Source of the DNA: Alphaproteobacteria bacterium
GTDB taxonomy: Bacteria; Pseudomonadota; Alphaproteobacteria; MPNO01; UBA830
Direction of reading: 5' to 3'
NCBI GenBank assembly: GCA_964291215.2
Contig: OZ219791.1
Location: forward strand, 992,001-1,056,000
Length of the DNA: 64,000 nucleotides
The notes under the pieces were generated by a model. That model was not told where the DNA came from. It did not search any database and saw nothing but the letters and a program-made list of their open reading frames with translations. Positions within the stretch are counted from its first letter, which is position 1; every line of letters starts with the position of its first letter. Below, piece after piece: positions 29,076 to 55,013 of this stretch. The position numbers and the translations under genes were made by a program.

Positions 29076-29440
29076 GTAACTGATCAAACACGGACGTTCG
29101 GTAGTGTAACTGCTCAAGCCTGATTTTGTCGAGCGCTCACAGGCCGTGGATTGATGGTTCCGATGTGGTGGCGCCGAGGGAGGATTTCGCAAGCGCAGTT
29201 TCGGGATCAGCTGGATGGGGCCGGGCCAGCGTTTTTAGGACATTCAAGCCTTGCTTTCGGGGGAATTACGGATCGCAGGTTGGCGAAGTCGCAGGCGCCT
29301 TGCATGGAGCGGAAGCCACCCGAGATATTCTGTCGCAGCTTGCCGATCCGGAGACCGCGCTCGGCCTCGTTGAGAGTGCGTCGGCGTCGGCGCAATCAGC
29401 ACCTGGCTCAGACCCGTCGTTGCCTTCGATCCGAAATACC
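29076..29440 (-). pseudogene. IS66 terminal fragments with 3' transposase remnant and methyltransferase 5' fragment
   Basis: GTAACTGATCAAAC at 29076 and GTAACTGCTCA at 29106; NEAERGLRIGKLRQNISGGFRS; GYFGSKATTGL. Confidence 0.65.
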
Positions 29441-29442
29441 CC

Positions 29443-31769
29443 AACCGCCGCCCTTCTGTGCTGGATGCCCGAACTCGGTAGCGTCGGCAGCCTTGATCGG
29501 GGTGGCGCCGATGGCTGACGACCACGGTGCCCGGCACATCCGCGGCGGGCGCAGAAGGCCACGCGATCTCCTGTTCATAGCCGCAATCTCGGCGGCACGC
29601 TTCAACGCAGATCTGGTGTTCGAACGCCTCGAGACCGCCGGCAAGCAAGGTCGCGATTGTCGCCGTGATGCGCAACGTGCTGGCGAACACCTTAGATGCG
29701 ACAGCAGCGTTGCTGGTCGCCCGAAGCACCGATGAGTGAGCGAAGGAGACCCCCTCATGGCTCTCACCCCTGCCGAGAAGCAGCGCCGTTATCGGGAACG
29801 CTGCAAATACCCGCCCACGGAAAGCCCTGTCGTTCCCGTGCGCAACGCTGGCGCGACGCGGTGGCTCGGTGCATTGCAGGAGCACTGTTGGGGCAGTCTC
29901 GACAATCTCCCCGCGCGACACGGCTTGCGGAGAATGTCTGCAGATCATTGTCGAGGCCGGCATCGAGGCTCTCGAGGAGATCGAACCGCCGCGCGGCTAC
30001 GGACGGGACACCCGGAACTCCATTGAACATGGTAACGTTATCGTAACTGCTCACCCCCTGGTTCCGGCTTGATGTCGGGGTAGAGCAACGAACGGGTTTT
30101 CGTGGAGGTTTGACACTGCAGGCCGATTCGTTTAGTGGTGGTTATCGAGAACGACGGGGACCGGCAGTGAGCTACTTTGGATCGAAGGCGACGAGCGGGC
30201 TGTGCCATCGGAGGCGGCGCGCTGATGAAGCGCAAGGCCGGGCAGCGGAGTACCGGAAGATGCCGCCGGGCGAGCGCCAGGCGATGCTCGCGACGATCAT
30301 GACCGTCGAGGCCGGGTGATGGCGACGGGCGGCGCGCGAGGAGTTCGAAGCGGCCAAGACTGCGGCGCTGCCGGCAAGGTGGCGGAAGAGGCCGTCATCC
30401 GCGTCCTCGTCATCCTGCTCGACATCCTCATCGTCGTCCTTCTGGAGAAGACCACGCACGAGCCGAAACTCCGGTCTGCCGCCGTCACAGACGGACAAGA
30501 GCGTGCCGGAAGCAACGGTAAGGGCCCGAAGCCGAACCGGCAGATGGGCGACAACCTGCGCAAGATCATCGTCGAGGAGACGGTCGCGGCCTGCGACGCC
30601 TGCGGCGCCGACGGCCCCGTCGATCGGGAGCGCCGCACGACATCGTGTTCGAGGTCGTCGAGCGCCGCGCCGAGATCAAGGAATGCCCGAAGTGCAAGGC
30701 CCGGTTCCCCGACAACATCCCGTGCAGTACGGCATCGGCATTCAGGCCCTCGTCATCAACCTGCTGGTCGCCCAAATGCTGTCCCTGCGCCGTCGCGCTC
30801 GTGCAGGCGATCTCCGGCATCAAGCTCTCCGAGGCCTCGGCTATGCTTTCACGATGCGTCATGGGAGGAGGCTGCCGTGGCGCACCTCCTGCAACGCCCG
30901 ATGTCGACGATTTCGGATCAACGGCAAGTGGCTTCATGTCGTGGGACCCTGACGTGCAAGTTCCCGCACCGCAAGCGCGGGCAAGAGATCGGCCCGTGCT
31001 ACAAGGGCGTCCTGGGCCTCGTACATGGGCCAGTGTAGCCACCAGCTGTGCGGAGCCACCTACTGCGCGAACTGACCTTTGTCGTCGAGGCTACCGCGCG
31101 ACTGATGAAGAGCCTGCTCCGCGAAGTCTGCCACAAGATCAACAAGAGCGCATCCAAGACCCTGAACGGGGCCGACCGCCGGGCCGTGCACAAGCGCTAC
31201 CGCACCATCAGGGCGCCAAGGAACTGCCCGACATCCCGCCGAAAGGAAAACGTGGACGCAAGTCCGACGCGCACAACCTGCACGAACGTCTCGTGAAACA
31301 CGAAAACCTGCGCTTCATAGACGACCCCGATGTCAGCTTCACCAACAATGCCGGAGAACAGAAGATCAGGATGGCAAAGGTCAAGGTGTCCGGATGCTTC
31401 CGCTCCACGCAAAAGCATGGTGCCGGGGCTCGAGCTACCTCACCTCCATGGCCGCACTCGGCTACAACCCACTCGTCGCCACCCAGATCGCCCTCGACGG
31501 AAAAGCCGCAGACATCATCAACGAGCACCACGACCAATCAGAACCCAACTAGGGGTGAGTAGATACACGTTATCATGCCCGGGGACGCTGGGCGGCAAGG
31601 TGGCCGCGCTCACGTGACCAATGGACGGCAACCCGCCGCCGGGACCACAAGCTGCATGTCGCCTCGCTCGCAGGACATCGACAAGGCGGAACCCCGGACC
31701 GTCTGTGGACAACCACGGAAAACATCGCCGCGGACACCCGCAAAAACCTTGCCAGGAAACATGGATGCT
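29443..31769 (+). mobile_element. IS110 element copy C, 5'-truncated and interrupted by IS66
   Basis: WMPELG and RHIRGGRRRPRDLL fragments, accessory ORF, and right end ATGGATGCT followed by CG, as in copies A and B. Confidence 0.8.
30043..31566 (+). mobile_element. IS66 (ISBst12-like) degenerate element with MTase passenger, copy 1
   Basis: TIRs GTAACTGCTCACCCC/GGGGTGAGTAGATAC; 8-bp TSD ACGTTATC (30035-30042, 31567-31574); FTNNAGEQKIRMAKVK.SGCFR. Confidence 0.9.
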
Positions 31770-51151: not shown

Positions 51152-52444
51152 AGCATCCATGTTTCTTGGCAAGGTTTTTGCGGGTGTCTGTGGTGATGTT
51201 TTCTGTGGTTGTCCACAAGCGGTGTGGGATTTGCTCTGCGAGCGAGGCGACATGAAGCTTGTGGTCCCGGCGGCGGGTTGTCGTCCATTGGTCACGTGAA
51301 CGCGGCTACCTTGCCGTCCCCGGGCATGGTAACGTGACCGTCGTCAAGACAGTCCCGATCGCGGCGCTGCCTCTCGGCAGGGGTGAGGGCCATGAGGGTG
51401 GTCTCCTTCGCTCACTCACCGTGCCGGTGCTTCAGGCGCCCAGCAACGCTGCTGTCGCAGCAAGGTGTTCGCCAGAGCTTGCGCATCACGGCGACAATCG
51501 CGACCTTGCTTGCCGGCAGTCTTGAGGCGCACCAGGTCCGCGTTGAAGCGTGCCGGTTGCGGCCATGAACAGGAGATCGCGTGGCCTTCGGCGCCCGCCA
51601 CGGATGTGCCGAGCACCGTGGTCGTTGGCGCCACCCAGATCAAGGCTGCCGACGCTGCCGAGTTCGGGCATCCAGCAAAGAAAAGCCGCGGCGGTCACCG
51701 GATCGAGGTCAGGATGGCGTACCTCTGCTCGGGATCACCGGCGATCACCGCTTTGATCGCCGCGCCGGCAATGCGGTCATCGAGATCGGCCGCCGAGGCC
51801 CTTGTGACGGTCTCGCCATCCACCTCATCTGCCACCTGCTTGGCGTCGACAAGCGCGGCACCAAGAGATCCTCCAGGCTCTTGAGGAAGGCATCCTGAGG
51901 GGCCACAGGCTCGAGATCGCCCAGCCGATCTTGGCGTCGACGCGGTTGGCCCTTCGCCTCGGCGAAGCCCGCAACGGGTTGACGAGAATAACCTCGAAGC
52001 CCCGGTCATGAAGACACTGGTGAACCTTGCGGTGATAGCGGCCTGTCGCCCACCACCCGGCTCACCCCGAGGCCGCGAAGCCACTTGCCCGCCAGCTCGT
52101 GGCGTCGTTCGCAAAACAATGCGCCAGATGTCCAGACTGGCTGACCCCTGCTACTACCTTGACCATCGTCCCTTGTTCCTCGCCTTACGATGATACGGGT
52201 TCAAACCCAGGCATCCCCACAGCGAGGGACGTCAAGGGAGGTTGGCCGACCAAACTCGGTCGCGGCTCTGTCAAGGTCGAAACGGCAACCTCCGCGGAGA
52301 TCGTTTGATCCCCTGTGCGTGTTCGCTCAGGGGAGCGGAATCTCTCTGCAACCATAAACCGGACGCTCTCCCACAGATCCACATTTTCCCGCCCCAACTG
52401 CTGTGGATGATTTCATCATCAAGGGGACAAAACCTAGTCATATA
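51152..52444 (-). mobile_element. IS110 element copy A
   Basis: On the minus strand CAACCT|TATATGACTAGG...ATGGATGCT|CGGAC; inverted homolog of 53624-55013. Confidence 0.9.
52176..52351 (-). ncRNA. putative IS110 bridge RNA (copy A)
   Basis: Same stems as copy B; left target guide TTTCGACCT, right target guide CCGAG; boundaries approximate. Confidence 0.65.
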
Positions 52445-53623
52445 AGGTTGAGGTTCGCGAAGCCTGAGGAGATACCGCTGCGTTGATGGACGACTATCTC
52501 GGGTTTCGCCGTCTGGCGGGGCTGCGCCATGTTGCGTCCTTCAGGGGGCAGTGGTCTGGCCGGGGCCTTCAAGTGCCGCGACCGGTGGCTGGAAGCCGGA
52601 GCAGCAGGGCTTGATCTGACAACACGCGACTGCTTGCGGCGCCGGGAACGTTTCCGAACCTTGCCTCCTTCTTTCTTGCGACGCGGCGGCTGGCCGACAA
52701 TTGGGCCTACGGCCACCAGGTGGCGGAGACGTTCTGCGATCCGGCGCGTTTTGCGGGCACAAGGCGGCGGGCTGGCGTGCCAGGGGGTTTGCCCGCGCCA
52801 ACGGGCGCTGCACCGACCCCCATGGCAAGGAGATTTTCGTTGTGCGGCGCGACGGCTACTGTCGCAGGCGCTGCGGTGGCGCCGCCTGCCTCCTCGCTCC
52901 CCGGGGTTCCGAGGTGATGCGTTCGCTGCACGACGAGTTGGCGGTGATCGAGGACTTCCGCCGCGCAGGAAGCACACGGTGTGCTCACGTTCTCGCCGAG
53001 CTTGCGAACATGAAGGGCTGCCTCGCAGCTGCGCAGTTCGCACAGTCGCTGTCCCGGGACGAGCTCAAGGCCATCGGCGGAACCCGAGGACGGAGCTGCG
53101 CGAGCCGCCCTCCGGGGCGACCCTCCACCGGGTCATCCGGTCGATCGATCCCGAGGCGCTCGAGGATGTGCTCGGCCGCGGGCTCGCCCGGGCGCTTGCC
53201 GCCGACGGCAAGCGCATCCGCGGCGCCAACCGCAACGGCCACCACGAGACCGTGGCCCTCACGCCTCCGGCGCACCCTTCGCGCTGTTGAACTTCGACGA
53301 CGGCGAGCTGGCGGCCACCTCCTCGAGCGCACCGATGTCCGCGGCAAGGTGATCACCCGCACGATGTCGGCGACGCTGATCACCCGGTGCTGCGGCGCAG
53401 ACCACGTCTTCCCGGTCAAGGGCGCCCGAAACCTTCGACGGCATCGACCGGGAGACGGATGGTCGCTTCAAGGAGGCAAGGCCCGCCTCGAGCAGCGCGT
53501 GCCGCTCGAGGATCTGATCAACTACTCCGGCAGATCGCCCGCATCAAGCGCTACCGCGAGCCGCCGGGAAAGAGCGCCAGCGGCGCAGCGAGCGGCAACG
53601 ACTGCACCGGTACATCATCACCT

Positions 53624-55013
53624 TATATGACTAGGTTTTGTCCCCTTGATGATGAAATCATCCACAGCAGTTGGGGGCGGGAAAATGTGGATCTGTGGGA
53701 GAGCTATGGTTGCAGAGAGATTCCGCTCCCCTGAGCGAACACGCACAGGGGAGCGGGGATCAAACGATCTCCGCGGAGGTTGCCGTTTTGACCTTGACAG
53801 GGCCGCGACCGAGTGTGGTCGGCCAACCTCCCTTGACGTCCCTCGCTGGATGCTTGGGTTTGAACCCGTATCATCGTAAGGCGAGGAGCAAGGGACGATG
53901 GTCAAGATAGTAGCAGGGGTCAGCAAGGCCAGTCTGGACATCTGGCGCATTGTTTTGCGAACGACGCCACGAGCTGGCGGGCAAGTGGCTTCGCGGCCTC
54001 GGGGTGAGCCGGGTGGTGGGCGACAGGCCGCTATCACCGCAAGGTTCACCAGTGTCTTCATGACCGGGGCTTCGAGGTTATTCTCGTCAACCCGTTGCGG
54101 GCTTCGCCGAGGCGATGGGCCATCTGGCGAAGACCGACCGCGTCGACGCCAAGATCGGCTGGGCGATCTTGAGCCTGTGGCTCCGCCTTCCTCAAAAGCC
54201 TGTAGGATCTCCTGGTGCCGCGCTTGTCGACGCCAAGCAGGTGGCAGATGAGGTGGATGGCGAGACCGTCACAAGGGCCTCGGCGGCCGATCTCGATGAT
54301 CGCATTGCCGGCGCGGCGATCAAAGCGGTGATCGCCGGTGATCCCGAGCAGAGGTACGCCATCCTGACCTCGATCCGGTGACCGCCGCGGCCCTTCTTTG
54401 CTGGATGCCCGAACTCGGCAGCGTCGGCAGCCTTGATCGGGGTGGCGCCGATGGCCAGCGACAGCGGCCAGCACCACGGTGCTCGGCACATCCGTGGCGG
54501 GCGCCGAAGGCCACGCGATCTCCTGTTCATGGCCGCAACCGGCACGCTTCGACGCGGACCTGGTGCGCCTCAAGACTGCCGGCAAGGCCCACAAAGTCGC
54601 GATTGTCGCCGTGATGCGCAAGCTCTGGCGAACACCTTGCTGCGACAGCAGCGTTGCCTGAAGCACCGGTGAGTGAGCGAAGGAGACACGGCCCTCACCC
54701 CTGCCGAGAGCGCGATCGGGACTGTCTCGACAGTCTCCCTCTACGACACGACTTGGGGAGAATGTCTGCAGATCATCGTCGAGGTCGACATCAAGGAGAT
54801 CGAACCGCCTTGGGACACCTGGAACCCGGACGGTCACGTGCCCGGGGACGGCAAGGTAGCCGCGTTCACGTGACCAATGGACGGCAACCCGCCGCCGGGA
54901 CCACAAGCTTCATGTCGCCTCGCTCGCAGAGCAAACCCCACACCGCTTGTGGACAACCACAGAAAACATCACCACAGACACCCGCAAAAACCTTGCCAAG
55001 AAACATGGATGCT
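53624..55013 (+). mobile_element. IS110 element copy B
   Basis: ATCACCT|TATATG...ATGGATGCT|CGCTC; recombinase remnant from ATG 53898 (MVKIVAGV.SKASLD, VNP, LAKTDRVDAK, RHIRGGR). Confidence 0.9.
53710..53890 (+). ncRNA. putative IS110 bridge RNA (copy B)
   Basis: 11-bp 5' hairpin, then two internal-loop domains whose loops match the target and donor sequences; boundaries approximate. Confidence 0.72.

Follow-up and report, generated by a model that had tools for sequence, protein, structure and literature searches.

A small passenger gene and its neighbouring palindrome in an IS110 lineage and in other mobile elements

IS110 insertion sequences are under development as programmable recombinases, and the usual model gives them a single gene and a single RNA. 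Within a 64,000-nucleotide stretch of an alphaproteobacterial contig (the window, in what follows), a first-pass annotation had described three IS110 copies in which the recombinase is followed, inside the element, by a ribosome-binding site, a small open reading frame (ORF) and a conserved tail, and had read these as a two-gene IS110 subtype whose second product is a regulator, a directionality factor or captured cargo. The locus raises the question of what a second gene is doing behind an IS110 recombinase and whether that gene belongs to IS110 in particular.

The window locus and its intact relatives

The features of the best-preserved copy and of the two further copies are as follows (coordinates, strand where there is one, description and, in brackets, the basis of the call).

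29445–29735, + strand: IS110 recombinase, 3′ part only (compared with intact element L024 by blastn and tblastn)
29743–29748, + strand: ribosome-binding site AAGGAG (sequence; conserved in intact relatives)
29757–30012, + strand: broken passenger gene, starting at ATG 29757, 96 aa when intact (homologues, model, alignment)
30023–30042: TTGA box and first palindrome, GGTAACGTTATC, a predicted binding site (sequence comparison)
30035–30042: left copy of the 8-bp target duplication ACGTTATC (sequence)
30043–31566, + strand: inserted IS66-type element, riddled with deletions, outside IS110 proper (Pfam, copy count, short reads)
31567–31574: right copy of the 8-bp target duplication ACGTTATC (sequence)
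31575–31748, + strand: non-coding tail (alignment with intact elements)
31749–31769, + strand: ordinary IS110 right end, with -35 box TTGCCA, donor half ATGGATG and core CT
51152–52446, − strand: second IS110 copy, both ends kept, passenger gene mostly deleted
53622–55013, + strand: third IS110 copy, both ends kept, passenger gene without its ATG

Relative to L024, the copy at 29445 has lost its left 918 bp, its bridge RNA and roughly two-thirds of its recombinase. Several details of the earlier description were borne out, namely the AAGGAG box (a ribosome-binding site being present in all three window copies), the ATG at 29757, the quoted peptide pieces, which lie in two frames, and the right end, which reads ...ACATGGATG-CT and finishes at 31769. 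The small ORF is indeed best kept here, with six deletions of 5–8 bp relative to an intact relative and its stop codon lost; its presence in every copy held only in part, as the ATG and ~190 bp are gone from the third copy (whose left non-coding end, with bridge-RNA guides, occupies 53622–53897) and the second retains remnants only. A search of the source genome found no intact copy of the 96-aa passenger. Neither feature is a product of chance, because the right end is common to 57 near-full-length IS110 copies in the source genome and the ORF has 1,250 homologues.

The interval 29720–31769 had been taken as one continuous long right end, a description that fails at 30043–31566, where an IS66-type remnant accounts for 1,524 of the 2,050 bases and leaves an IS110 share of ~520 bp. 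This insertion disrupted the first palindrome of the IS110 copy, GGTAACGTTATC, which differs from GGTAACGTTACC by one change. The Pfam match of the remnant to DDE_Tnp_IS66 is weak (E 9e-4, below cut-off); the IS66-type element has 114 full-length copies in the source genome, and the empty site of the insertion is spanned by short-read contigs from two runs. Upstream, 29106–29444 holds fragments with IS66-like ends in place of the IS110 left part, directly after a gene that we take to be lptD-like.

Alignment identifies the window copies as broken remnants of elements of the L022–L024/L037 type. Intact elements, which the annotation had proposed to look for, were found in other alphaproteobacterial genomes as 1,840-bp relatives with the 96-aa gene (L037 and L098), and Pfam detects both DEDD_Tnp_IS110 and Transposase_20 in L022–L024 and L037. 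There are no terminal inverted repeats; the elements insert at a CT core, which marks the termini of the genome copies as well as those of 13 relatives. By eye, the donor guide tracks the element end (ATAAG/CTTAT in L024; ACAAG/CTTGT in L023, L030, L037 and L098) and target guides in the left ends of intact relatives match the flanks; bridge-RNA guides could be parsed in 53 of the 57 source-genome copies. Joining the ends yields a predicted junction promoter, TTGC(C/A)(A/G)-17-TATGAC, in 7/7 intact elements.

The last 21–26 bp of intact elements match the short right ends of distant IS110 relatives, and relatives with 32–48% recombinase identity mostly stop ~25 bases past the stop codon, with a similar CTTGA...CT end; the gene and tail, which occupy ~550 bp between recombinase stop and right end in intact elements, are therefore an insert before an ordinary right end. 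The tail itself, annotated as ~200 bp, is 199–255 bp long in intact elements, apart from one with a duplication, where it reaches 383 bp; in the window it is interrupted, and its second palindrome is eroded near 31610–31619. One row, G000_C2_1487, covered the ORF rather than the tail and was left out of the tail alignment.

The window clade shares its DEDD and Transposase_20 domains, CT core, left-end guides and junction promoter with IS621/ISEc21-type IS110; unlike that type, it carries the ~550 bp of gene and tail behind its recombinase. A left-end bridge (seek) RNA and a promoter formed at the junction of joined ends in IS110 circles have been described (PMC11187229). Judged from its sequence, the window element is a decayed IS621-like IS110, and its lineage departs from the description "one gene, short right end".

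Apart from these assignments, repeats in the source genome, including those at 29445–31769 and 51152–55013 of the window and other IS remnants, are full of short deletions. The 57 source-genome IS110 copies show this decay clearly, each carrying 30–53 gaps relative to an intact relative, with mosaic sharing among copies. Among 185 distinct gaps, 87 measure 5–7 bp and 26 measure 12–14 bp, and 131 have 0–1 bp of microhomology; IS66-type copies show the same 5–7 bp peak. The neighbouring frames, presumably lptD-like and lptG-like, are open, and short-read contigs align gap-free to parts of the region. Repeats in this genome may be subject to some mutating or converting process, of which the literature searched gave no description. 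Many of the 57 copies are nested within other insertion sequences. Their target-loop guides vary, forming at least 3 main sets that broadly fit the flanks, and this variation is apparently natural retargeting of the bridge RNA.

Retention, family and spread of the passenger gene

Among loci that share at least 65% recombinase identity with an intact relative, counted only where the recombinase C-terminus and 300 bp of downstream DNA were present, 49/51 carry the gene (19/21 non-redundant); of the two gene-less loci, one keeps the ribosome-binding site and start and the other is cut by an insertion. The annotation had reasoned that close IS110 relatives lacking the ORF would imply a one-off capture, and this is not the pattern found. 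The gene is present at none of 28 loci with recombinases below 60% identity, and a degenerate locus at 62%, counted in neither class, keeps the ribosome-binding site and start. From these comparisons, the capture point would be bracketed between ~48% and 72% recombinase identity.

An in-frame stretch of 70 aa, taken as it occurs naturally in a different copy, served as query and retrieved the 1,250 homologues among 1,263 candidates, the closest being 96 aa long; a profile search recovered 771 clusters at E <= 1e-10, so that the family comprises at least 771 clusters at 50% identity. The intact 96-aa protein consists of a basic helix, a linker, a predicted helical hairpin and a PPRGYGRD tail, and the predicted monomer (pLDDT 87) places the helix at residues 5–17 and the hairpin at 34–85, joined by the 16-residue linker. 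The tail, PPRG[YF]GRD, is invariant in the family, and its role is not accounted for by the binding model set out below. Median dN/dS is 0.25 (55 pairs from 11 genes), with values of 0.10–0.37 among IS110 carriers; the passenger gene is under purifying selection.

Comparison with known families returned no match in Pfam, no meaningful match in NCBIfam, no match in PADLOC for four family members, weak PHROG matches of unknown function only (mostly on the basic helix) and matches to unnamed clusters only in Atlas. A sequence and profile search of the PDB gave no relative of the protein, a structure search of the PDB and a viral library gave nothing at E <= 0.001, and a wider structure search gave generic helical hairpins only (best Z 6.5). 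Nothing was found by tblastn with two queries against plasmid records. The largely open-access literature searched gave no description of the family, its site or a prokaryotic bZIP-like passenger.

Two candidate interpretations were set aside. Gene loss in the source-genome copies is no sign of dispensability, because the recombinase is broken there too and the protein can act in trans. A type II antitoxin would be expected beside a co-transcribed toxin gene; in intact IS110 elements only the tail and right end follow the passenger.

Neighbouring genes were tabulated, as the annotation had suggested, at 76 loci (the best 75 of 303 confirmed hits, plus L007), many of which are copies of single elements. 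In this set the gene does lie beside IS110 (15 loci), and IS21 is the commoner neighbour (44 loci); the remainder are four loci with serine recombinases of the large type, two with IS66, one with another transposase and ten others. The IS21 loci divide into 36 behind istB and 8 whose IS21 also has a toprim gene, and the IS110 loci into 12 in the window clade and 3 behind other recombinases. The passenger lies inside the IS21 and IS66 boundaries as placed by multi-copy groups, and inside boundaries that were inferred for the three single IS110 loci outside the window clade. A fifth IS110 lineage, in genome G334, has the passenger at 9/12 hits, and seven full-length homologues came from viral contigs. 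The proposed two-gene IS110 clade exists, but the gene is mostly found elsewhere in the set of 76; the earlier interpretation is partly supported, and the gene does not define an IS110 subtype.

The four intact IS110 recombinase types share only 23–31% identity, and a single clade of IS110-borne passengers was rejected (AU p 3.7e-8; the broken L051, L053, L060 and L087 were excluded from the tree). Furthermore, a starred clade of 16 sequences contains both IS110 and IS21 carriers, and IS21 and IS66 elements within the same host group carry near-identical cassettes. These patterns bear on the proposal that the protein is an IS110-specific directionality factor or a second recombinase subunit. 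Serine recombinases use directionality factors, and the gene lies beside these enzymes and beside five IS110 lineages, always directly behind the recombinase in the window clade; yet its partners (IS21, IS110, IS66 and serine recombinases) are unrelated enzymes, the passengers of the divergent IS110 recombinases do not form one clade, and none of the 28 distant loci has the gene. Because the partners are unrelated, we regard such a role as very unlikely, and of the three options offered by the annotation a regulator is the best.

Cargo-bearing IS110 elements have been described, and their cargo is said to come mostly from plasmids, with an enrichment in resistance genes (Hu et al., bioRxiv 10.64898/2026.08.14.744561). 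The window clade resembles them in being bigger than the minimal model and in having extra genes, and differs in that its cargo is always the one small gene, accompanied by a site of its own and common to other IS families. The words "regulator", "hypothetical" and "DNA-binding" are absent from the main text of the preprint. IS110 cargo is thus already in print, and the new part here is the association of gene and palindrome.

Some settings of the gene are recorded as separate observations. Eight copies of a ~4.7-kb IS21-type element in one genome (L034, L038–L042, L045 and L087) contain istA, istB, a toprim gene and the passenger. Outside insertion sequences, the passenger lies upstream of a ParA-type gene (L046) or of an unnamed 260-aa gene (L056, L061) and downstream of a primase-type gene (L095), an arrangement like that expected of an operon regulator in plasmids or integrative elements. 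At L105, L069 and L080, a similar hairpin-rich GTCAAG...CTTGA segment extends the right end of an unrelated IS110 and of IS21 elements. The IS110 copies of G334 (L152–L163) decay by substitutions, not deletions.

The palindrome beside the gene

The palindrome GTNACGTNAC occurs within 200 bp of the gene at 67 of the 76 loci (best 75 of 303 plus L007), the same loci on which the motif was defined, with an expectation of 0.015 per 400 bp calculated from far flanks. Of the nine remaining loci, eight represent a single element with a spaced form of the site (one of the eight being interrupted), and the ninth is L058. At new loci, the exact site is present at 4/7 viral full-length homologues, with a one-base variant at 2 more, and intact at 1/12 decayed G334 copies; it is absent at L151.

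Among 38 distinct upstream sites, 31 are followed by an in-frame start after 21–28 nt and 31 have T at the -10 end position, and TTACGTAA is the core of the commonest of these sites. Promoter-like boxes enclose the site in L134 (TGGACA-17-TACAAT) and L095 (TTGACG-18-TACAGT). In the 96-aa clade the site instead lies 3′ of the gene, at +27, and IS110 adds a second, inverted copy at +79; in intact IS110 elements the two are 52 bp apart, and the junction -35 box follows ~210 bp after the first and ~160 bp after the second, so both are too distant from the junction promoter for simple blocking. No -10 box was found after the downstream sites of the IS110 clade.

We put at slightly better than even the chance that this IS110 lineage carries a widespread cassette, the gene plus GTNACGTNAC, whose protein likely binds the palindrome and regulates transcription independently of the transposase. 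Under such a scheme, the N-terminal helix, [LM][TS][NPD]AE[RK]Q[AR]R[YH]R, would read GTNAC in the major groove and the helical hairpin would dimerise the protein. Where the site stands 21–28 bases before the start codon and, in clear cases, within the -35/-10 spacer, the protein would act as an autorepressor. In the window clade, protein on the downstream pair would most likely damp transcription through the element, as a roadblock or by forming a loop, which is the weakest step of the scheme. Candidate probe DNAs for the predicted binding by the 96-aa protein are GGTAACGTTACC, CGTTACGTAACG and a single GTNAC. A naturally retained regulator of this kind could serve as a handle on IS110 activity, and a family of such size, hitherto without a Pfam or NCBIfam match, gains a predicted binding site.

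Alternatively, the protein may bind the site and control itself only, the cassette being copied from one element end to another without effect on its carrier. The recent passage of the cassette between unrelated IS families within one host group fits this account, as do the sites on both sides of the gene at L049, L057, L059, L152 and L249, which resemble a unit with its own borders, and the mobility of related IS110 elements that have no gene. Against it stand the retention of the gene at 19/21 non-redundant close loci and the dN/dS of 0.10–0.37 among IS110 carriers, and no mechanism of mobility of the cassette's own was found; on balance we find a passenger without effect on its carrier doubtful.

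The palindromes could also act as RNA, the 20-bp inverted pair forming a hairpin behind the gene while the protein does something else. By eye, the two arms match perfectly as inverted repeats in both L024 and L098, and L098 and L037 each show a matched change; but the arms mismatch in L022, L023 and L043, IS21 and IS66 carriers have one site only, and Rfam returned no match in the intact elements L037 and L098. We regard a role as RNA as extremely unlikely.

The basic helix and GTNAC repeats

For regulation through the palindrome, the preferred reading, the basic helix is the predicted reading surface. Its consensus was drawn from 163 of 268 proteins; the Asn of the bZIP basic region N-x7-R is present in 80/163 helices, with Pro at that position in 45. 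A scan of viral contigs with nothing but the helix motif returned 63 loci, 53 of them distinct, and no gapped 5-mer was more enriched within 150 bp than GTNAC (232 vs 48 expected, the control being the far flanks of the same viral loci; a control peptide scan yielded 2 loci only). At least three GTNAC occur at 36 of the 53 loci, a tandem site at 20 and none at 8, several loci belonging to one phage family, so that the 53 are not independent tests. Since all three frames are used (79/99/31), GTNAC does not solely reflect Val-Thr coding. A second search pattern gave 27 GTNAC vs 3.8 in 8 loci, three of which are passenger family members.

Three of four long phage carriers of the helix match PHROG replication initiators, in which GTNAC repeats spaced 5–8 bp surround the helix. 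The initiators (PHROG 2509, 3926, 9474 and 16167) resemble the passenger in having a T-x-AE[RK]QRRYR helix amid GTNAC; unlike it, they are multi-domain proteins of 260–370 aa with the repeats within their own gene, and they have neither the hairpin nor the PPRGYGRD tail. The arrays in phage initiator genes may be replication origins, and the link between helix and GTNAC points to possible origin positions in many phages.

This link suggests a role in origin interference or phage sensing, in which the protein competes for, or is titrated by, GTNAC origin repeats, so that an invader is hindered or the element released. The helix shared with phage initiators and the ParA, primase and Rep-like genes that adjoin family members are consistent with it. 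However, the four family members compared with PADLOC had no match there, and the view of such repeats as origins is carried over from lambda-type phages; we consider this role rather improbable. A broader proposal, which we judge unlikely, is that the gene founds an undescribed bacterial class of bZIP-like readers, with a short GTNAC helix used by IS passengers, plasmid and phage regulators and phage initiators, and that the copies at IS ends link transposition to invading replicons. If so, the link to invaders would consist in the protein blocking GTNAC origin arrays or being titrated by them.

Among characterised readers, the basic region of Yap1/Pap1 contacts TTACGTAA through the signature NxxAQxxFR (PMC8450079), and in the commonest variant of the passenger helix N, Q, the aromatic residue and R keep this spacing. 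The passenger differs in having Arg/Lys for Ala and often Pro for Asn, and its predicted monomer has no leucine zipper continuous with the basic helix. We treat the likeness as an analogy, homology not being claimed; at most, the protein would work like a bZIP reader. RptR, a 79-aa bZIP-like autorepressor of defence islands with a short palindrome in its own promoter, is likewise a small bacterial regulator that sets a basic helix on a palindrome, and so a published precedent for this mode of binding; unlike the passenger, it recognises TAGCTA, reads with a C-terminal helix and lies beside restriction systems (PMC12255303). In the searches run, RptR gave no sequence or fold match to the passenger. 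The association of helix and GTNAC bears on bZIP-style DNA reading in prokaryotes. In the viral contigs of L164–L235, GTNAC arrays adjoin the basic-helix codons in replication-initiator genes.
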